Positions 5,835-32,091 of a DNA stretch of 64,000 nucleotides are shown piece after piece; the first letter of the stretch is position 1, and every line of letters begins with the position of its first letter. Below the pieces are notes generated by a model. That model was not told the origin of the DNA and ran no database searches. It saw only the letters and a program-made list of their open reading frames with translations. Position numbers and translations under genes: made by a program. The stretch is from a virus: IMG/VR virus record IMGVR_UViG_3300031857_000027. One strand, 5' to 3'.

Positions 5835-7237
5835 ACTTTGAATCCTCCAAACTTGTTCTTCATCCCAGACTGACGTTCACGGTCACCAAAACTGTTCAGA
5901 GGTTTGTCATCAACTTGTCCGGTATCTACCAAATCATCCTGTGCTGACTGTTCCACATCATACAGTTTCATCTTGGCTCTGTCAATACCCACTACAAACC
6001 GCTTGAAATAATTCGGATCATTGTAGCGATTCTTTAGTTGCTTAATTAGTATCTGATTCAATTGTTGCAACTCTTCGGTACTTATCAAGGCGAACATAAA
6101 GTCTGCGGTCGCTGGTAAGCCAAAGGACTCTGAAGTATCCTCAAGACCAGGATCGCTGGAGGTGAAGCCGGAACGGGTCGTTTGTGTAGCCGATACTATC
6201 GGCACTTCAAACTCAACCGCAAGACCCCTGAGTTCTTCCGCAATAGCCTTAATATAAGAATAACTATTTACGTTAGCACCAGGTTTGATTCTGGCACTTG
6301 CACAAATGTTAAGATAGTCAATGAAAATGATGTCAGGTTTGAAACTCTTTTTTAGTTGCAATTCATTTAACAAAGCACGGAAGTGTAGTGCTGAGGCTGC
6401 TGCTGTTGGATACTCTTTGATGATGAGTTTACCATGTGTTTTGACTTTCAATGCAGAGAACTTGCGGTCATAATCTTGTTTACTGATAGAGTTCAGGTCA
6501 GCAATATCAATGTTCAATAGATTGGCGTCAATACGTTCAGCAATTCGTTCTTCAGCCATTTCCATCGTGATATACAAAACATTCAGACCTTGTGCCAAAC
6601 AAGAACCTGCAACGTGACACATGAACAATGATTTACCAACACCCGTACCAGCAAGTGCAATGTTCAATGTTTTCTTTGGTAGACCACCTTTGGTAATCTT
6701 GTTGAACAAATCAAGGTCAAAAGGAATCTTTGTTTCATGACGATGATAGAAATCAAAACGATTATCTGAATCATCAATATAATCATGACCAACAGAGTTA
6801 TCAAATGATACACCAAGTGCATCAGATAACATCTTTGGTATCATACCTTTATCTTCTTTATTTTCCCTATCATCAAGAATCTTAACAGACTTCATGATGG
6901 CATTATAGATTGCTTTGTCTTGGCAAAACTTTTCAGTTTGCTTGATGAGCCAATCTACATCTGTAGGATCAGTTTTGTCTGCATTGATTTCACGAATCAT
7001 CTCAACGGCTTTTCTGACCTGTTCTTCGGTCAGTTTACGTGATTCTGTAAAATTGATGACAAGTGATTCGTAGGTTGGAAGATGTTTGAACTGATTTATG
7101 TGGTCGTTTATTTCCTCAAACAGATTTTTTTCTGTTGAGTCTGTGAAGTATTCAGTCTTTAAAAAAGGAATAATCTTTCTTGTATAGTCCTCATTAAATA
7201 TCAAATTCTTCAGGATCGTAGTCTCTAGGCGCTTCAT
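5831..7237 (-). CDS. 41: Replicative DNA helicase gp41
   Basis: Walker A AGTGVGKS, YITMEM, IDYLNI, SATQTTR, KNRY; T4 synteny. Confidence 0.97.
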   Translation of the reverse strand: MKRLETTILKNLIFNEDYTRKIIPFLKTEYFTDSTEKNLFEEINDHINQFKHLPTYESLVINFTESRKLTEEQVRKAVEMIREINADKTDPTDVDWLIKQTEKFCQDKAIYNAIMKSVKILDDRENKEDKGMIPKMLSDALGVSFDNSVGHDYIDDSDNRFDFYHRHETKIPFDLDLFNKITKGGLPKKTLNIALAGTGVGKSLFMCHVAGSCLAQGLNVLYITMEMAEERIAERIDANLLNIDIADLNSISKQDYDRKFSALKVKTHGKLIIKEYPTAAASALHFRALLNELQLKKSFKPDIIFIDYLNICASARIKPGANVNSYSYIKAIAEELRGLAVEFEVPIVSATQTTRSGFTSSDPGLEDTSESFGLPATADFMFALISTEELQQLNQILIKQLKNRYNDPNYFKRFVVGIDRAKMKLYDVEQSAQDDLVDTGQVDDKPLNSFGDRERQSGMKNKFGGFKV

Positions 7238-7505
7238 AATTCTTTGAGGTTAAAATTTCAGTTAATATGTCACCAATGAGTGTATGAAACTCGGTGTCCT
7301 GCGTTAAATCATCAATCGGTATTTGTGGTGAAGTGACTATTGTATAAGAAAAAGTCATCTTAGCATGGTCTTCTTCTTCAGATAGTCTAACTTTACCATA
7401 ATGATAAAGAACTCCCTGATACGGACCCTTTAGTATGCCAACACCAGTTTTAAATCCATCATCAGAATCAAGAAGTGTGAAATCTTCATTAATTTGTGGC
7501 TTCAT
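7194..7505 (-). CDS. Hypothetical protein in the T4 gp40 position
   Basis: Lies between uvsX and gp41; probable start MKPQINEDF overlapping the uvsX end. Confidence 0.6.
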   Translation of the reverse strand: MKPQINEDFTLLDSDDGFKTGVGILKGPYQGVLYHYGKVRLSEEEDHAKMTFSYTIVTSPQIPIDDLTQDTEFHTLIGDILTEILTSKNYEAPRDYDPEEFDI

Positions 7506-8550
7506 CTTCTTCTTCCAAAACGGCATCTTCTCCAAGAATGCTGCTATAAGTGATTTCATATTTTTTCCTTACATATTCTTTGAAACTTTCATTTGCAAGA
7601 ATATCTTTCCAGAACTCTTCATTTTGAGTATCAGCAAAACGTTTCTTCTCAAGAACTTCACCAGTTTCTTGATCTACTTTAGCGTACCAACCATTGCTTG
7701 GCTTAGTGACGAAATTACCTTCGAGTGCAATATCCAATAGGCCAGACCACTTGTTAATACCACCGTCAAAGGATACAGTAACAGGTATTTTGGATTTTTC
7801 TCTGACATATCTACTTTTTTCTACGTTGATAATGAAGTTATAGCCGACAATTTCTGTACCATCTTTGTCTTGTTGACGACCAAGAATCCAGATTGTGTCT
7901 GCTGAGTAATAAGAACCTGTGCCACCACCAACGATATCTTTAGGATACATACCAATCTCTTTGTATGTGTGATTGACAACAATCATTGGAATGTCTTTGA
8001 TTGTCAAATGTGGTGTGACCATACGAAACAAAGATTTCATCTGTTTTGCTCGGCTCATGTCAGCAACAGATTTACCTTCAATTGAATCTTCAACTTCTTT
8101 CTTTGAAGCCAAATTGCCAATCGAATCAAGCACAATAATCACTTTATCATCTTTTTCAATATTTTGCAACTGATTCATGATATCATGTTTCAATTGTTCA
8201 ACATCGGTAATTGGTGTGTGTAACACTCTTTCAGTATCAATACCGAATGCGTCAAAATAACTTTGTGGTGTGCCGAACTCAGAATCATAAAACAGAACAA
8301 CAGCGTCTTCATACTTCTTCATGTATGATTTTGCCATGAGTAAAGCAAATGCGGTTTTAAAATGTTTTGATGGACCAGCAAACATCGTTAGACCTGGTGT
8401 CAAACCACCATCTAAATTACCTGATAGTGCCACGTTAATGATAGGCACATCAGTTTGAATCATATCTTTATCGGTAAAAAACTTTGATTTAGAAAGCACC
8501 GATGTCTCTTTAATCGTTGATGCTTTTTTTAGTTTATCAAGTACGCTCAT
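7489..8550 (-). CDS. uvsX: RecA-like recombinase UvsX
   Basis: AGPSKHFKT, YDSEFG, DSIGNLASKKE, GGGTG. Confidence 0.97.
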   Translation of the reverse strand: MSVLDKLKKASTIKETSVLSKSKFFTDKDMIQTDVPIINVALSGNLDGGLTPGLTMFAGPSKHFKTAFALLMAKSYMKKYEDAVVLFYDSEFGTPQSYFDAFGIDTERVLHTPITDVEQLKHDIMNQLQNIEKDDKVIIVLDSIGNLASKKEVEDSIEGKSVADMSRAKQMKSLFRMVTPHLTIKDIPMIVVNHTYKEIGMYPKDIVGGGTGSYYSADTIWILGRQQDKDGTEIVGYNFIINVEKSRYVREKSKIPVTVSFDGGINKWSGLLDIALEGNFVTKPSNGWYAKVDQETGEVLEKKRFADTQNEEFWKDILANESFKEYVRKKYEITYSSILGEDAVLEEEDEATN

Positions 8551-9448
8551 TCATATCTCCAATATCTGCAATTTTGTCTTTTGGTATTACCGTGTGCTTA
8601 TCATCCACAAAGAATGATTCTAACGTGCGTGACGGTGTGCTGTCAAGTTTTTTCTTCTTTACTGCCTTTTTGATCGGTTCAATCTCACCTTTATCTTCTC
8701 TAATTCTGCGGTATGTTTGATTTGCTGCTATCAATAATAACACAGCAAGTGGGTCAAATACAATAATGATGATGAAGATAACCAATCGTACTGCTTTATC
8801 AATCAAGTCACGATCTTGTGTGCCATAAACTACTTCTGCCACATATTTTATAGGCCCCAAATCCGATTCAGCCTTTTTAACTTCCAAGGATAAAGGGAGC
8901 TTCTCTTCCGTGAGTAACTGTATTTCTTTTTGTAGCCTCTTAGTCTCAGCAATGATTCTCTCACGGTCTTTCTGTTGGGCTTTACGAATTTGGTTCGCCC
9001 GTTCAGCCCCCTTTTCATCTTTCGTTCTGCCCATAATTTGATCGACAGCCTCATCATACTGACTAAGGTTCTTGTTGTTCCTCTCAATTTGCGATTGAAT
9101 AACTTTGATCTTTTCATCATAGATTTCTACCTTTGCTGCTTGTGGTGCTATTGTGCTTGAATGTTCAATGTGTGCTTTTGAAAGATACCCAAAGATTCCC
9201 ATTGATGTAATACCCATCAACAGAACCACAGCAATGAGGAAGTAAAGTTTGAGTGCAGAGAATGTTGTTTTCCAATGATTGTATACCCACGACACAGTTA
9301 CCAGTTTTGCTGCTTCAAGCACAGAACCCATAATGATGATAGGCCAGTATGAACCTGGAAATATCTGTGCAAGACCAATCACCGAGTAATATGCAGCAAT
9401 ACCCGATAAAGCAAGAGCAGTCAAAAATGGTAATATTACATGTGTCAT
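8537..9448 (-). CDS. Membrane protein: 3 N-terminal TM helices, long coiled coil, 4th TM, basic tail
   Basis: Hydrophobic segments at about aa 4-30, 34-56, 64-89 and 222-243; heptad-rich middle region. Confidence 0.8.
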   Translation of the reverse strand: MTHVILPFLTALALSGIAAYYSVIGLAQIFPGSYWPIIIMGSVLEAAKLVTVSWVYNHWKTTFSALKLYFLIAVVLLMGITSMGIFGYLSKAHIEHSSTIAPQAAKVEIYDEKIKVIQSQIERNNKNLSQYDEAVDQIMGRTKDEKGAERANQIRKAQQKDRERIIAETKRLQKEIQLLTEEKLPLSLEVKKAESDLGPIKYVAEVVYGTQDRDLIDKAVRLVIFIIIIVFDPLAVLLLIAANQTYRRIREDKGEIEPIKKAVKKKKLDSTPSRTLESFFVDDKHTVIPKDKIADIGDMNERT

Positions 9449-9990
9449 GGATTGTTTTTAGAGTGTGGTACATCAAAAACAAAAGTTATCCTATCAACGT
9501 CACCGACATTGAGTGTTCCGTGTAATGCCTTATTATTAAACCAAAGTAAAGTTCCTGGTTCAACAATAACTGATTCATCACCAACAAAGTATTCGTATCT
9601 ACCTTGTATTGATAGATGATAACGATCCTTTGTCAGATAATAAGTACCTTCATCTATATGTCTACCAACTGTTTGACCAACACCTAATTTCAAAAAACCA
9701 CAACGACAAAACTTTTTAAAATGTCTTTTGACAAAACTTATGATTTCTGTGTGATGCTTGTATGCCGGTGTTGGAATACAAAGTTCACTATCACCAACAA
9801 ATTGTTCTTCTCTTTCCAAACCTGCCATAACCAACTGAAGTACATCGGTTGTAACAATGTACTTCTCATGGTCAAGTTGTTCAGTGCCTTTTACTTTTTT
9901 TTGGTTGCCCCAGTCTTCTGGATACTGCTGCAACTGTTTCAATATCTTTGAGACATTAATACCAGTTCTGATTACACGTATATTTTTCAT
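9445..9990 (-). CDS. Aspartyl/asparaginyl beta-hydroxylase-domain 2OG-Fe(II) oxygenase
   Basis: HIDEGTYY...RYHLSI...WFNNKALHG...RITFVFD. Confidence 0.8.
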   Translation of the reverse strand: MKNIRVIRTGINVSKILKQLQQYPEDWGNQKKVKGTEQLDHEKYIVTTDVLQLVMAGLEREEQFVGDSELCIPTPAYKHHTEIISFVKRHFKKFCRCGFLKLGVGQTVGRHIDEGTYYLTKDRYHLSIQGRYEYFVGDESVIVEPGTLLWFNNKALHGTLNVGDVDRITFVFDVPHSKNNP

Positions 9991-12515
9991 GAAAAGAAAC
10001 TCTCAAGTGTGTATTGCTTCTCTGTTTGCCAACCGATACAATCAAGAATCAATTTAATCGGTTCAAGAAATGTTTTTTCAAACTGTGTTTCATAATCAAT
10101 ATATTCTTGCAACTCAAACTCTTTTGGCAATCTTGTTGGAAATGAAACAACCATATCTCTGAAAGGGTTTGGTGTTTTGAGATAGGTAAACTTCAACTTT
10201 TCACCTTCTTGTATCAAAGGATACTTAGTCATCAGATTGTGCTGTTTAAGGAAATGATTATACAGTATTGCACCCTTCACATGAATAGGTGTGCCTTTCT
10301 TGTATATTGTAACAGAATCCGCATATTCTTTCAAGCCATTACAGCCACGTGGAAAAGAAATATCTTCAACAGGTAACTTACGAAACTCTTCTCTAAAGTC
10401 GGCAACAAACTTTTGTACCGTTTCTTCGTCGGTGTTTACAACCAAATCAACCAATTGATACATCTTGGCACGTACAGCGGTAGGTGTAGATGACTTGACC
10501 ATCTCAAGACCCATGACCTTGATTTTTGGTTTTGCATACTGAACACCTTCGTTGTTGTACACATTTAGAATATAACGTTTCTTTGCAGTCCAGATACCTT
10601 TATCGGACAAGCCTTCACGTTTCATCTGCATTTTTTGGTCGAACGCATGAACATATTCAGCAAGTTCTTGATAACTCTTATCAATATATGGTTGAATTTT
10701 CTCTTCACAGATTTTGTCCATGAAGGCGATAACTTTCTGAGCCTCTGGTTTTTCTTTATACACAGAGTCAACCAGTGGACCAAGATTAAGATAGATTGAA
10801 TCTGTATCCGAAGCAATAACATAGTCAGTATTAGATTTTAGAATTTTATTCAAATAATCGTTGAGTTTGTTTTCAATCCAACGAATAGAGAGTTGACCCG
10901 CTTGTGTAACAGCAAGTGCTTGGCGCAAATCATAAAACCTAAAATACTGAGAACCCATTGCACCGTAGGCAGAGTTTAGCGAAACTTTCTTTGCAAGTTG
11001 TAGATTGTTGTATCTTGCAATTAACTTCTCAATTTCTTTTTTTCTACCTTTGTCTTTTTCGTTTTCATAATCTTGCTGTTCTTTCAACATCAACTTCTTA
11101 AACTTTTTACGGTCTTCATACATCTCAATCATCATTGCTGGTAGAAAACCTTGCTTGTCTGTACGAAAGAATTGACCATTTGGTGTAACTGTCACATCTT
11201 TCATCACACTCGTATCAATTTTTTGGTCAAGCAAACTTTCTACCGATGCCTGTGTTGAAATACGGCGCATATCATCAGTATAATCATCTTTCTCAATCAA
11301 GGTCTCTGGTGAGATGTTGTATTGCATAATCAAATGCGGATACAGACTGTTTAAGTCAAATGATGCGACCCAATTATGTAAACCAATTTTTGGTTCTTTG
11401 ACATAAGCACCTTCAAATGCTTCACTCTTTTTGGCAATACGGCGTGGTGGCACAACAATCTTCTTATCAAGTAGATAGTTGTAGATCAGTGCATCCCACA
11501 TTCTTGTTTGTGCAAATACATCATCATAGTTACACTTGGTGTCATACGCCAGAGTCAGTGCAAGTTCAACCAGTTTTAGTTTATCTTCCAGTTTCAAAAT
11601 CAGATGCACATCTTTGATGTTATACTCAATAAACTTTTGATGATCAAGTCTATAGAGTTGATGTAAATTATCATACTCATCATATGATAGTTTGCTTTCA
11701 CCAAGTTCTACACTGGCGATTGTATCTAGACGATAGTTCTCGGCGTTTTTACCACCAGGTGCATACCATTGGTACAGTTCAAGATAATCAAGAACAGAAA
11801 TGCCGACCAGATCATAAACAATCTGCTCTTTGCCTTTGAACACAGTCTTTCTTTCAGAATAGACAGACCATGGTGACAACTTGTTTACTACATCATCCCC
11901 AAATAAACGTGAGAAACGATTGACAAGGTAAGGAATATCAAAGAACTTGATATTCCAACCAGTAACAACGTCAGGATGGTCGCTTGACCAATCAGCAATA
12001 AACCGTTCACAAAGATTGATTTCATCTTCACACTTAATGTATGTTTCTTCACCTTTTACCTCATAATCACCACAACCATAAACCGTAGTACCGCCATTCA
12101 ATTGATGAATAGCGATTGCTGTAATAGGCTCAGTAGCCTTGTATGGATCAGGAAATCCATTTTCAGAACCAACCTCAATGTCTATGAAAGCGACAGAGAG
12201 ATGAGAAATATCCCAATCAACAATCCCTCTAAAATTGTCAGCAATGAATGCGTATTCATAGCGTGTATTGCCGTAGATTTTAAAGTTTGAAACATCTTCG
12301 TAACGTTTGACAAAATCACGTGCCTCCCGAATAGTATCAAAAGTCATAGGTTCCAATGGCTCATTGAACAATGAACGCCATTGGTTTTGTTTATTAGACT
12401 GCAAAAACAAAGTCGGAGAGTATTTGACCTTTGTCTTAACTCTCCGACCGTTGTTCACTCCACGAAAAAGTATGTGATTGCCGTGGACGCAAACATTCGT
12501 ATAATATTTACTCAT
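9987..12515 (-). CDS. 43: Family B DNA polymerase gp43
   Basis: ExoI DIEV, SFDLNSLYPH, KVSLNSAYG, DTDS, KKRY; C-terminal clamp-binding TLESFF. Confidence 0.98.
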   Translation of the reverse strand: MSKYYTNVCVHGNHILFRGVNNGRRVKTKVKYSPTLFLQSNKQNQWRSLFNEPLEPMTFDTIREARDFVKRYEDVSNFKIYGNTRYEYAFIADNFRGIVDWDISHLSVAFIDIEVGSENGFPDPYKATEPITAIAIHQLNGGTTVYGCGDYEVKGEETYIKCEDEINLCERFIADWSSDHPDVVTGWNIKFFDIPYLVNRFSRLFGDDVVNKLSPWSVYSERKTVFKGKEQIVYDLVGISVLDYLELYQWYAPGGKNAENYRLDTIASVELGESKLSYDEYDNLHQLYRLDHQKFIEYNIKDVHLILKLEDKLKLVELALTLAYDTKCNYDDVFAQTRMWDALIYNYLLDKKIVVPPRRIAKKSEAFEGAYVKEPKIGLHNWVASFDLNSLYPHLIMQYNISPETLIEKDDYTDDMRRISTQASVESLLDQKIDTSVMKDVTVTPNGQFFRTDKQGFLPAMMIEMYEDRKKFKKLMLKEQQDYENEKDKGRKKEIEKLIARYNNLQLAKKVSLNSAYGAMGSQYFRFYDLRQALAVTQAGQLSIRWIENKLNDYLNKILKSNTDYVIASDTDSIYLNLGPLVDSVYKEKPEAQKVIAFMDKICEEKIQPYIDKSYQELAEYVHAFDQKMQMKREGLSDKGIWTAKKRYILNVYNNEGVQYAKPKIKVMGLEMVKSSTPTAVRAKMYQLVDLVVNTDEETVQKFVADFREEFRKLPVEDISFPRGCNGLKEYADSVTIYKKGTPIHVKGAILYNHFLKQHNLMTKYPLIQEGEKLKFTYLKTPNPFRDMVVSFPTRLPKEFELQEYIDYETQFEKTFLEPIKLILDCIGWQTEKQYTLESFFS

Positions 12516-16710: not shown

Positions 16711-17704
16711 ATTTAAAAATCACCGTGTCATCTAAACTTTTCTCATTTTTAAGTTCATTCTGCAATGCCTGCCTTTTGCTGCTGACCAGTGAGAATTTAT
16801 CAAAAACGTAATAATGTTTTTCAAAGTGAACATTCTTAACATCATCTATCATGTTTTTATTTCCGACTTTACCGACGTTCCAACAACTCACACCATCTTC
16901 TTTCAAATGGCTTAGTGATTTTTCAATCAAAGGTTTGAGAAACTCTGCAATCCAGGATTCATAGTTAGTTACATTGTTTATTGATTGAGTTGACTCTTTA
17001 GTATAAACTTCAACATCAAAATAGGGTGGGCTGGTCAAAACCATATCCACTTTAGGTAAATTATAGTTAGCCATATTTAAAGCATCATCACATATGATTG
17101 TAACTTTATCTTCAATATTTAAAAACTTAATCAGTCTTTGTAAATTTTTATAAGTTTCTGTATTTGGTTCAAAAGCAATGTATCTTGCACCACTTGAAAC
17201 CACACCTAACATTCTTCCACCCCAACCAGCACATGGGTCTAAAACTATTTTTGGTTTATATTTCAAACACAAAAGTTTTGCCATTTGTGGTCTATACATT
17301 GTACTTTTGGTTAGACCACAACAAAAATAAACTCCACGTTTTAGTTCTGAAAGATATGGTGTGCTATGACTCTTTCTATTCCAACGTAAAATTTTTTGCA
17401 GATTTTCAGCAGTCCAACTGTTGGCAAAACTTTTACCACGATTGTCTTCTATTTTATAGAAGTTTGGGAAAAAGTGTTCACACAATTTCATTCCAATTCT
17501 TGAAGTTGAATTGATGGTGTTTTCATTTGAAAACCAACGAATCAAATTGTTCCAATCTGTCCTTAGTTGTTCTTCAGTATAAAGTGTTTTGTAATCTATA
17601 CCTTCTAATTGAGTGGCTAAGTCATTGACTATACCCTCAAATTGTTCATCGGAAAGATTTCTGGTACTATATCTGATATTCAAAAAGTCTTTTATTTCAA
17701 CCAA
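16703..17704 (-). CDS. Amino-DNA methyltransferase (N4-C / N6-A)
   Basis: SAM motif VLDPCAGWGGR followed by catalytic TSPPYF. Confidence 0.85.
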   Translation of the reverse strand: MVEIKDFLNIRYSTRNLSDEQFEGIVNDLATQLEGIDYKTLYTEEQLRTDWNNLIRWFSNENTINSTSRIGMKLCEHFFPNFYKIEDNRGKSFANSWTAENLQKILRWNRKSHSTPYLSELKRGVYFCCGLTKSTMYRPQMAKLLCLKYKPKIVLDPCAGWGGRMLGVVSSGARYIAFEPNTETYKNLQRLIKFLNIEDKVTIICDDALNMANYNLPKVDMVLTSPPYFDVEVYTKESTQSINNVTNYESWIAEFLKPLIEKSLSHLKEDGVSCWNVGKVGNKNMIDDVKNVHFEKHYYVFDKFSLVSSKRQALQNELKNEKSLDDTVIFKYE

Positions 17705-18261
17705 AATTCTAGACCTCTTAGTTCTTCCTTATTTTTCCATTCAGAAATGTCGTAGACAAAATCCAAATCAAAAAAATTATCAAAATTACCCATCAAAATG
17801 TAATCGTCATTCTTTATTTTTTCACCACCTTGTTGATGTTTAAACAAAGGAGAAGGTGTGTTGTCCATATGGTCAATAAAGTCTTGTTTCTTGAAGAATA
17901 CCATTTTTGACTTTGAAAGATCATAGTTGACTCCAAGAAAGATCAATCTTTCCCAATCTTTTTTTATTGAAATGTGATTAAGCGCAAATTGATTGTGTAC
18001 TGTTTCATGTGCTAAACTAATTTTAACTTCGGTTTTATAACCATCAATTAAAAAATCCTGTCCTGAATTTTTTCTTTCTCTTACAGAACAGTTTAGTAAT
18101 GTCATGTATTTACCTACTATTTTCTCTCCCAAGGCGCCTTTGTTTTTGTTGGATATCAATGGATACTTTTCAAAGAGTGTGCCTTCCCACAAGTTTTTAG
18201 ACTTTTCTTCCATAAACTTGTTGAGTTTGCCATCTTTAAATAAGGTATCAAAAGGTATCAT
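17692..18261 (-). CDS. Putative PD-(D/E)XK restriction-type endonuclease
   Basis: KGALGEKIV...QDFLIDGYKTEVKIS; coupled to the MTase. Confidence 0.65.
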   Translation of the reverse strand: MIPFDTLFKDGKLNKFMEEKSKNLWEGTLFEKYPLISNKNKGALGEKIVGKYMTLLNCSVRERKNSGQDFLIDGYKTEVKISLAHETVHNQFALNHISIKKDWERLIFLGVNYDLSKSKMVFFKKQDFIDHMDNTPSPLFKHQQGGEKIKNDDYILMGNFDNFFDLDFVYDISEWKNKEELRGLEFWLK

Positions 18262-19443: not shown

Positions 19444-20124
19444 TTAACCTTTCTCATATTTTGAGCCTGCTTCAGTTGCAATCCAATACTGAATGCTCAT
19501 TGATTTGTGTTTGAAGTGTGCAATACCCTTTGAAGAGATAGTTACTGAATAAGCACCAGCAAGCATCTTCAAATTCTCTGTTTTGAACAGCATCTTGTAC
19601 TTGTCACCATTGCTCTTTGACACTTCAAGAGATTCTGTGTGTGCTGCATCATTCTGCAAATCAAATGCAGTTACAGAAACTTTACTACCATCAGATTCAA
19701 TAGCAATATGTGGTGAAGAAAGGACATTGGCAGCACGAAGAATCCAATCAAAGTCTTCTGCACTCAAATCAAATTTGATTTCTGGATTGTTGAGTTCCAG
19801 ATTCTTATCTGGTGCAGCAACGATCATGCTTGATGCACAGAAGCGATATTTGATTTTGCTGCGACCTTGTAGACCAGAGATGAGAACATTTGCCTCATCA
19901 AAGTCAATCACAGGTTCTTCTTTGTGTAGTGAAAGAACGGACAAAAAGTTGTTCAGATCATATACACCAAACTCTTTTGGAATTTCTTCAGAGACAACAG
20001 CCTCAGCAAGAATATTCTTATGAGTAGAAATGGTACGAATTGTTTTGCCTGGTTTGAAAAGAATGCCTTGATTAATACTGGCAAAGTTTTTCAATACAGA
20101 CAGAGTTTCATTTGAAAGTTTCAT
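19444..20124 (-). CDS. 45: Sliding clamp gp45
   Basis: MKLSNETLSVLKNFASIN, FGVYDLNNFL, YWIATE. Confidence 0.96.
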   Translation of the reverse strand: MKLSNETLSVLKNFASINQGILFKPGKTIRTISTHKNILAEAVVSEEIPKEFGVYDLNNFLSVLSLHKEEPVIDFDEANVLISGLQGRSKIKYRFCASSMIVAAPDKNLELNNPEIKFDLSAEDFDWILRAANVLSSPHIAIESDGSKVSVTAFDLQNDAAHTESLEVSKSNGDKYKMLFKTENLKMLAGAYSVTISSKGIAHFKHKSMSIQYWIATEAGSKYEKG

Positions 20125-24380: not shown

Positions 24381-24419
24381 ATTATATAAGGATACCACCA
24401 CTTTGTCAAGCGGTGGTAT
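24381..24419 (-). promoter_or_regulatory. Consensus sigma70 promoter with -35 inside a 12-bp stem-loop
   Basis: TTGACA-17-TATAAT; ATACCACCGCTT-GACA-AAGTGGTGGTAT. Confidence 0.9.
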
Positions 24420-26741: not shown

Positions 26742-26770
26742 ATTATATATGGTTTGACGGGGTTTGTCAA
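26742..26770 (-). promoter_or_regulatory. Consensus sigma70 promoter (proximal of a tandem pair)
   Basis: TTGACA-17-TATAATGGT. Confidence 0.9.
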
Positions 26771-26830: not shown

Positions 26831-26859
26831 ATTATAACTGGTATGCTGGAGATTGTCAA
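26831..26859 (-). promoter_or_regulatory. Consensus sigma70 promoter (distal of a tandem pair)
   Basis: TTGACA-17-TATAATGGT. Confidence 0.9.
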
Positions 26860-31551: not shown

Positions 31552-32091
31552 TTACTCTACATCATCATCTAGAAATTGTTCAAGACCCTCCGACTTCTTT
31601 TCTTTTTTCTTTTTCTTATTTTCCTCAAAGTTATGAATGAACTCTGAGATGTTATCATACAACTCAAACTGCTTCATGTTACCATTTTCATCTTCATACA
31701 TCTCACCCTCATCAAGCAAACCAAACTGTTGTGTGGCTTTATACTTCACATACAGTTGCTTCTTCTCACGCATAATTCTACGCAGAAAAGCATAGTAAAT
31801 TATCTGTGTGAAGTAAGCAAATGGATTCTTTGATTTGGCAGGATCAAAGTTACGAAAATACATCAGACAGTTTTCAACACCATCTGATATCATCTCATCA
31901 CGGTATGTGTATGAAATAAAGTTTGGCTTACGTGATAGGTGTTCTGCAATCTTTAGAAAGCATTCGCCAATGTAATCTGGTATCTTTGGCTCTGGTTTAT
32001 TTTCTTCTTTAGCAGTGGCACATTCTGTACGATACTTAACAAGTGCTGCTAGAAAATCTGCATTATTAACGTAATGATTTGCTGTTGTCAT
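31552..32091 (-). CDS. 55: Late-transcription sigma factor gp55
   Basis: HYVNN, KIAEHLS, NF..YTY..EMISDG, NPFAYFTQI. Confidence 0.96.
   Translation of the reverse strand: MTTANHYVNNADFLAALVKYRTECATAKEENKPEPKIPDYIGECFLKIAEHLSRKPNFISYTYRDEMISDGVENCLMYFRNFDPAKSKNPFAYFTQIIYYAFLRRIMREKKQLYVKYKATQQFGLLDEGEMYEDENGNMKQFELYDNISEFIHNFEENKKKKKEKKSEGLEQFLDDDVE

Follow-up and report, generated by a model that had tools for sequence, protein, structure and literature searches.

Why should an integral membrane protein of a phage carry the same six residues with which the phage DNA polymerase ends? The question is raised by a stretch of 64,000 nucleotides (hereafter the window) of the IMG/VR virus record IMGVR_UViG_3300031857_000027, an uncultured T4-like phage from a lake. 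In this window the DNA polymerase gp43 (842 amino acids; 9987-12515; Pfam DNA_pol_B) ends in EKQYTLESFFS, with TLESFF encoded at 9993-10010. A membrane protein of 303 amino acids (hereafter MP; 8537-9448, defined by the open reading frame list, the sequence and viral homologues) contains TPSRTLESFFVDDKH, which includes RTLESFFV, with TLESFF at 8609-8626 (residues 275-280). All genes and protein segments given below by window coordinates are, like these two, on the minus strand. In the T4 family gp43, gp55 and gp33 bind the sliding clamp gp45 through a C-terminal peptide of hydrophobic and acidic residues. The MP tail peptide is accordingly a candidate gp45-docking epitope; that it is a true one, displayed by a membrane protein, is a prediction given slightly less than an even chance, and MP is a plausible candidate for a new, membrane-bound clamp client.

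The shared peptide was the starting point of the original prediction, and its coordinates in both proteins were confirmed to the base. The match is at the protein level, as had been said, the codons differing at 4 of the 6 positions (aca ctt gag agt ttc ttt in gp43; acg tta gaa tca ttc ttt in MP); these codons, together with the unrelated flanks, rule out that the gp43 end was recently duplicated at the DNA level. Any hexapeptide common to two proteins is an ordinary event, with 30-53 such pairs in shuffled proteomes, and a second copy of exactly TLESFF is expected 0.0017 times per proteome. Among all open reading frames of at least 40 amino acids in the 133-kb genome, MP is the only carrier of [ST]L[ED].F[FLY] besides gp43. 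The looser pattern [STG][LIV][ED].F[FYLMI] was observed 4 times in the proteome against 2.3 expected. A composite pattern (at least 5 K/R in the 20 residues upstream, the motif, and at least 2 D/E in the 4 residues downstream) was observed twice, in gp55 and MP, against 0.02 expected, a post hoc figure since the pattern was defined after the data were seen.

The peptide was then compared with the clamp-binding epitopes of T4 and of the clade. Of the epitopes of gp43, gp55 and gp33, reviewed in PMC2988020, those of T4 gp43 and gp55 read SLDFLFG and SLDFLYEAND; the review describes them as highly similar hydrophobic and acidic ends, which are interchangeable and sit on a divergent linker. In the clade of the lake phage the C-terminus of gp43 is [ST][LI][ED]xFF in all relatives seen (more than 190 loci). 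The late sigma factor gp55 (31552-32091; phrog_234, E 1.5e-63) carries GLEQFL at 31570-31587, after KKKKKEKK and before DDDVE, and the tails of 120 gp55 relatives have the form ..NKKKKK..KG[LIV][ED]xF[ILMF], then acidic residues, mostly with 2-17 residues after the motif. For an epitope of this clade it is therefore nothing unusual to be internal or to vary in its last residue. This is relevant to MP, where the peptide is followed by V-D-D and a total of 23 residues lie beyond it: the peptide is internal and not C-terminal, and its fit to the clamp-binding type, as first proposed, is supported. It shows the pattern of the gp43 and gp55 epitopes of the clade in full, namely S or T (G in gp55), an aliphatic residue, an acidic residue, an invariant Phe, a variable hydrophobic residue, an acidic follow-up and a lysine patch upstream.

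Like the epitopes of gp43, gp55 and gp33, the MP peptide is a short hydrophobic and acidic element on a flexible linker of variable sequence, as the tail has a predicted local distance difference test score (pLDDT) of 43-66 and the entropy of the linkers on both sides of the peptide is 2-3 bits. The MP peptide and that of gp55 both have a K-rich stretch upstream. MP is unlike these three proteins in that the carrier is an integral membrane protein and not a soluble DNA or RNA enzyme, that 23 residues follow the peptide, that its codons double as a promoter (see below) and that its binding is only predicted. To our knowledge, soluble enzymes and transcription factors make up the known clamp clients of the T4 type. 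A literature search turned up neither an integral membrane protein with a clamp-docking peptide nor an account of the MP family.

Two further proteins of this genome concern peptides of the clamp type. A protein of 189 amino acids (17692-18261; phrog_6927), located among the clamp-loader genes, ends in ELRGLEFWLK, another possible peptide of this kind. The gp33 homologue (genome C1:129929-130126, outside the window) ends in KGNRLPI, without a hydrophobic-acidic clamp epitope; judging from this sequence, gp33 of the clade may not bind the clamp in the T4 manner.

Relatives of MP were collected from about 210 IMG/VR loci with four queries, and the MP gene is found between gp43 (with or without the cupin-like gene described below) and uvsX in every locus reaching both neighbours (about 200 loci). 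The group A relatives, with core identity down to about 50%, retain [ST][LIV][ED]xF[FYMIL] in about 110 distinct members. In 120 close proteins (75-95% identity) the tail is arranged as KK.KKKK-[LVI]D, a linker, [ST]LE[STA]F[FL],.DD.. and IPKDKI... The lysine patch, KKAVKKKK (residues 260-267; 8648-8671), is strongly conserved in 113 distinct group A tails (K264 98%, K266 100%, K261 93%). The second conserved element of these tails, IPKDKI (residues 288-293; 8570-8587), matches the FF peptide in conservation: no tail departs from I288 or I293, K290 is kept in 98% and all four codons occur for P289. RNA structure was considered as the cause of the conserved IPKDKI codons and rejected, the putative uvsX leader being unstructured (z = +1.45). 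A second set of relatives, group B, has tails with a KENIAxV-like element and a different conserved C-terminal peptide, PKYDYDxxxxFREKGK, which was sought on other proteins of those phages and gave self matches only. IPKDKI thus has a counterpart in group B, KENIAxV/I, and the FF peptide has none.

Part of the conservation around the FF peptide has another origin, which the original prediction had not seen. A consensus scan identified TTGACA-N18-TAGAAT (8646-8617) on the coding strand, within the codons of the MP tail and with 11 of 12 consensus positions. The -35 hexamer TTGACA (8641-8646, minus strand) falls on codons NTT-GAC-A.. (L/V/I/F, D, N/S/T/K/I), and the -10 hexamer TAGAAT (8617-8622, minus strand) on codons NTA-GAA-T.. 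(L/V/I, E, S), with 66 nucleotides from the hexamer end to the uvsX ATG. The hexamer bases are 90-99% conserved in the 113 tails even where the amino acid varies. D269 is preceded by L, V, I or F, nearly always with an NTT codon; D269 is GAC in 99 tails and GAT in 2, and the following codon begins with A whatever the residue encoded. Residue 276 is L, V or I, with an NTA codon in 103 of 113; E277 is GAA in 106 and GAG in 4; the codon of residue 278 begins with T in 104 of 113. Of 135 distinct regions upstream of uvsX, 87 have the exact sequence TTGACA-N18-TAGAAT at 64-70 nucleotides from the ATG; group B lacks it.

On these sequence grounds the segment 8646-8617 is predicted to be a sigma-70-type promoter for uvsX, with a transcript that would start about 60 nucleotides before the ATG. 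Exact TTGACA-N16-18-TANAAT sites number 4 in the window against 0.6 expected, and the other three (24381-24409, 26742-26770 and 26831-26859) are intergenic and just upstream of genes on the same strand. They resemble the embedded site in having TTGACA, 17-18 nucleotides and TA.AAT on the coding strand, a few tens of nucleotides before a start codon. The embedded site differs from these three host-type (sigma-70) early promoters in being inside a coding sequence, with an 18-nucleotide spacer and TAGAAT as the -10 box. The T4 late-promoter box TATAAATA was not found near the MP gene. The -35 box of the embedded promoter lies in an imperfect inverted repeat, TGACAGCACACCGTCA, at 8630-8645. Since the hexamers are conserved at the nucleotide level, the conservation of L-E-S and of the upstream (L/V/I)-D is not countable as evidence for a docking peptide.

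The signals of peptide and promoter are nevertheless separable. A total of 142 distinct tails were classed by promoter match (of 12 positions) and by the state of the peptide, in counts that are not phylogenetically independent and were treated as a few events each. With a promoter match of at least 11/12, the peptide was full in 96 tails, present at 5 of 6 positions (S[IV]ELF.) in 4 and absent in 4 (L158, L149, L159 and L156). At 10/12 it was full in 1, at 5 of 6 positions in 2 and absent in 5; some of these 10/12 matches, at other tail positions, are probably due to chance. Below 10/12 it was full in 10, at 5 of 6 positions in 1 and absent in 19 (group B type). The ten tails with peptide and without promoter belong to three lineages: one with SLETFF (TAGAAA, TTGAAA), one with TIENFF or TIDNFF and an insertion clade in which the -35 box is displaced. 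In the 113 group A tails F279 is invariant, with TTT in 57, TTC in 56 and Leu codons never occurring, and residue 275 is Ser (AGY) or Thr (ACN) in all. The invariant F279 with both codons, together with the peptide kept in lineages without promoter, indicates that the peptide is under selection of its own, as is the promoter.

The proposed partner, the sliding clamp gp45 (19444-20124; Pfam gp45-slide_C and DNA_PPF), is similar to the RB69 and T4 clamps (E 1e-26 to 1e-24; RB69 gp45 E 9e-26). The modelling of peptide binding to gp45, called for by the original prediction, was done with the gp45 trimer and MP residues 262-303, and the complex prediction scored 0.51 against 0.00 for the best of three controls, a result classed as 'weak support'. 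Of 80 solved complexes 58 reach the mark used, as do 2 of 110 mismatched pairs; those that reach it with a score of 0.60 or less comprise only 7 of the 80 solved complexes and both passing mismatches. At least 61% of contacts are common to the runs, and the partner pLDDT is at least 44. A modelled complex at this level shifts the odds of gp45 binding only a little.

The carrier of the peptide is modelled as an integral inner-membrane protein with three transmembrane (TM) helices, a coiled-coil hairpin of about 100 residues, a fourth TM helix and a disordered tail of 60 residues. The AlphaFold2 (AF2) model was built on 124 homologues, has a mean pLDDT of 80 and contains helices at residues 2-29, 31-57 and 64-98, a hairpin at 101-141/145-196, a helix at 213-253 and the tail; its helices agree with the four-TM coiled-coil protein described earlier from the sequence. 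TM1-TM3 occupy residues 2-89 (9182-9445; pLDDT 85-94, with hydrophobicity and loop charges in accord). The antiparallel coiled-coil hairpin, residues 101-196 (8861-9148), has net acidic flanks and is presumed periplasmic. It is followed by a short conserved helix, GPIKYVAE, and by TM4, residues 222-243 (8720-8785), within the helix 213-253 and with FDPLA, of which F231, D232, P233 and A235 are invariant in the 124 sequences. The tail, residues 244-303 (8540-8719), has no secondary structure and contains 10 K/R among its first 25 residues. Among the 124 homologues, the TM1-TM2 loop lacks K/R, the TM2-TM3 loop is basic, as is the segment following TM4, and the hairpin is flanked by segments with a net acidic charge. 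By the positive-inside rule MP is probably N-in/C-in, with both termini cytoplasmic and the hairpin periplasmic, and the earlier placement of the Lys/Arg-rich tail in the cytoplasm after the last TM helix is thus probably right.

The libraries of families, defence systems and folds gave no meaningful match to MP. Foldseek of MP against PDB gave no match at E <= 0.001, a wide VIA-align search gave only generic helical hairpins (Z <= 10.7, below the meaningful level for helical models) and a profile search of PDB found nothing. In Pfam, PHROGs, NCBIfam and PADLOC the matches of MP were only sub-threshold or coiled-coil noise. DUF4407 (PF14362) and Tetraspanin (PF00335) are, like MP, membrane proteins whose late TM helices are separated by a large helical loop. 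The MP of the window had no DUF4407 match, its distant homologues scoring 15.8-17 bits against a curated cut-off of 31.3, and it is not a Tetraspanin by score (19.3 bits, cut-off 32.1; weak matches overall 19-23 bits). Some Atlas clusters of the MP family are auto-named 'putative DUF4407', with scores far under the curated cut-offs.

The family comprises about 8000 close homologues and 4314 representatives (clusters at 50% identity) and is viral by the Atlas; its core is a very large viral family, among the larger uncharacterised families of viral membrane proteins. The core (residues 1-255) is conserved, whereas the tails range from 20 to 570 residues and are highly variable, and the tail seems to be a platform for changing short peptides. 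Many long-tailed members (P0127-P0270 representatives) end in a recurrent G(E/R)YD...L(S/T)D.E(Q/R)EQI..(Y/F)L, a third conserved tail end. In the pelagiphage Mosig gp43 ends in SLEAFFG, and the MP homologue (Mosig_00157) lacks the peptide and is beside a glucosaminidase. In the jumbo phages, the homologue of XacN1 (ORF242) adjoins clamp loader and helicase and that of SCTP-2 (gene 195) is after topoisomerase II and before ClpX; that of a Flavobacterium phage (immuto35A_85) is about 2 kb from holin and chitinase. Distant homologues of Mosig, Mel-JY01, the Flavobacterium phage, XacN1 and SCTP-2 were tested for the C-terminal peptide of their own polymerase with no convincing case, only loose resemblances in acidic low-complexity tails. 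The expected conservation of the peptide in homologues is therefore true within the clade, where it is also partly explained by the promoter, and does not extend to group B, Mosig or the jumbo phages. With the peptide missing from the distant homologues, it is best described as an accessory tail feature specific to the clade and not as the reason for the existence of MP.

If the MP peptide is a docking epitope, the following sequence of events may be proposed. MP would be made early, together with gp43 and uvsX, and its tail epitope would dock on the hydrophobic patch of the gp45 clamp, as expected for gp43 and gp55 of the clade. MP would then compete for or capture gp45 trimers, free or left on DNA, and clamp-bearing phage DNA or the clamp pool would thereby be held at the membrane. 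The same 30 nucleotides would be dual-coding, for the docking peptide and for the uvsX promoter. The full reading, in which a large aquatic clade of T4-like phages has a membrane-bound gp45 client that organises clamp-loaded replication and late transcription at the membrane, with a docking peptide dual-coded with the recombinase promoter, is somewhat unlikely when all its parts are taken together. Anatomy, conservation, synteny, the promoter signature and the separability of peptide and promoter are shown by the analysis; that the tail faces the cytoplasm, that it binds gp45 and that it acts on replication or late transcription are all inferred. Binding of the peptide to gp45 would show how a phage can fix its hub of replication and late transcription to the membrane, and a single peptide with a single FF to AA mutant would then suffice for a direct test of membrane-associated phage replication. 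If the full reading is true, it would also give a molecular handle on the old, unsettled reports of membrane-attached T4 replication. The segment is in any case a clear natural example of overlapping codes, docking motif and promoter sharing nucleotides, and a warning that conservation of a short motif at the 3' end of a gene can stem from the promoter of the next one.

Several observations weigh against a docking function. The gp45 complex score is in the weak band and no contacts were returned, and the pass may be recall of the solved complex of the RB69 clamp with the polymerase peptide (1B8H). Residues 276-278 and 268-269 are in-frame promoter boxes, and much of the apparent conservation of the peptide owes nothing to the protein. 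At least four lineages, the L158, L149, L159 and L156 tails mentioned above and more weakly L184, keep the promoter and have lost the peptide; MP clearly works without it. The group B relatives, also located between gp43 and uvsX, lack the peptide though the motif is present at the end of their gp43. Covariation between the gp43 and MP peptides was sought and seen in one lineage only (SLDSFF in both), too little to count. The positive-inside rule is the sole basis of the topology. Finally, the lysis-type neighbours in Mosig and in the Flavobacterium phage suggest that the core function of MP may be unrelated to DNA.

These observations leave three other explanations to be weighed. The segment could be kept merely as the uvsX promoter, L-E-S being TTA-GAA-TCN read in frame and T and FF matching gp43 by accident, with no docking role. 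The excess of exact sites in the window, with the intergenic position of the other three upstream of genes, the conservation of the hexamers where residues vary and the bias to GAC and GAA, the fixed distance to uvsX in 87 of the 135 upstream regions and the lineages with promoter and without peptide are all accounted for in this way. It leaves unexplained F279, the hydrophobic residue 280, S/T at 275 and the acidic D282, as well as the likeness to gp55 in lysine patch and acidic follow-up. The ten distinct tails that keep [ST][LI][ED]xFF with a degraded promoter are also contrary to it, and, given L-E-S, the probability of obtaining the flanks [ST] and F[FYLMI] by chance is roughly 1e-3, so that this explanation is considered unlikely. 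A further one accepts a real short linear motif and assigns it a partner other than gp45 (a replication or recombination protein, a host factor or a membrane surface), or has it act together with IPKDKI. The I-P-K-x-K-I element is at least as conserved as the peptide, and its counterpart in group B indicates that the ancestral tail function probably involves another contact; the group B tails end in a conserved peptide of their own, as on a platform, and the gp45 prediction is weak. However, no other partner was indicated by any test made, and it would have to be a coincidence that the tail peptide is identical to the single class of peptides known to dock on gp45 in this phage family; another partner is thus judged improbable.

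The third explanation retains gp45 binding and dispenses with the anchoring of replication: MP would titrate the clamp pool or set its timing, delaying late transcription, or would serve superinfection immunity or lysis control with the clamp as a sensor of replication. MP has the map position of T4 imm, between gene 43 and uvsX, its homologues in Mosig and in the Flavobacterium phage have the glucosaminidase, holin and chitinase neighbours described above, and a mere anchor needs no periplasmic coiled-coil hairpin. T4 Imm is like MP in that map position and in its inner-membrane location, but has 83 amino acids, no coiled coil and no clamp-type peptide, and BLASTP of MP against it detected no similarity (E 13). 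As the neighbourhoods in XacN1 and SCTP-2 are moreover of replication genes, clamp binding without anchoring appears quite improbable. For an MP that holds replication at the membrane, the nearest comparison is phi29, whose proteins p1 and p16.7 act as membrane anchors of the replication machinery (PMC4974454). The proposed MP would resemble them as an early phage membrane protein holding replication components through a cytoplasmic protein-protein contact. There is no homology, p1 and p16.7 have a single TM helix, their handles are the terminal protein and single-stranded DNA and phi29 has no sliding clamp; the comparison is a functional analogy only.

The genome is 133 kb long with 39% G+C, and the window is the reverse strand of its first 63 kb. 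The T4-like replication genes of the window comprise gp41, UvsX, gp43, gp44, gp45 and gp55. The nearest cultured relatives are the cyanomyoviruses, with a gp43 identity of only about 51%. The order on the minus strand is gp43, a cupin-like gene, MP, uvsX and gp41, so that MP is two genes downstream of gp43, as first described, with the cupin-like gene intervening. At its start MP overlaps the cupin-like stop (ATGA), and at its end it shares 14 nucleotides with the start of the recombinase gene uvsX (7489-8550; Pfam T4_UVSX_C and RecA), the gene downstream of the embedded promoter. An acidic open reading frame of 121 amino acids (7194-7559), with no NCBIfam family match, lies between uvsX and gp41 and occupies the place that gene 40 has on the T4 map.

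The gene between gp43 and MP (9445-9990; Pfam PF05118, phrog_32420) is cupin-like or Asp/Asn-hydroxylase-like. It is optional: in many relatives no gene separates gp43 from MP, and 9447 is joined to 9994 in metagenome contigs. RNA was represented by ten runs, as assembled contigs only, with at most 0.09 of the words of the stretch in each; a single RNA contig covers part of the cupin-like gene. A very basic open reading frame of 90 amino acids (8848-9120) overlaps the coiled-coil region of MP in the +1 frame. Relatives with an identity of 55% or more keep this frame open over 78-128 codons, and those with 40-55% do not (median 27 codons); it may be open by mere codon composition.

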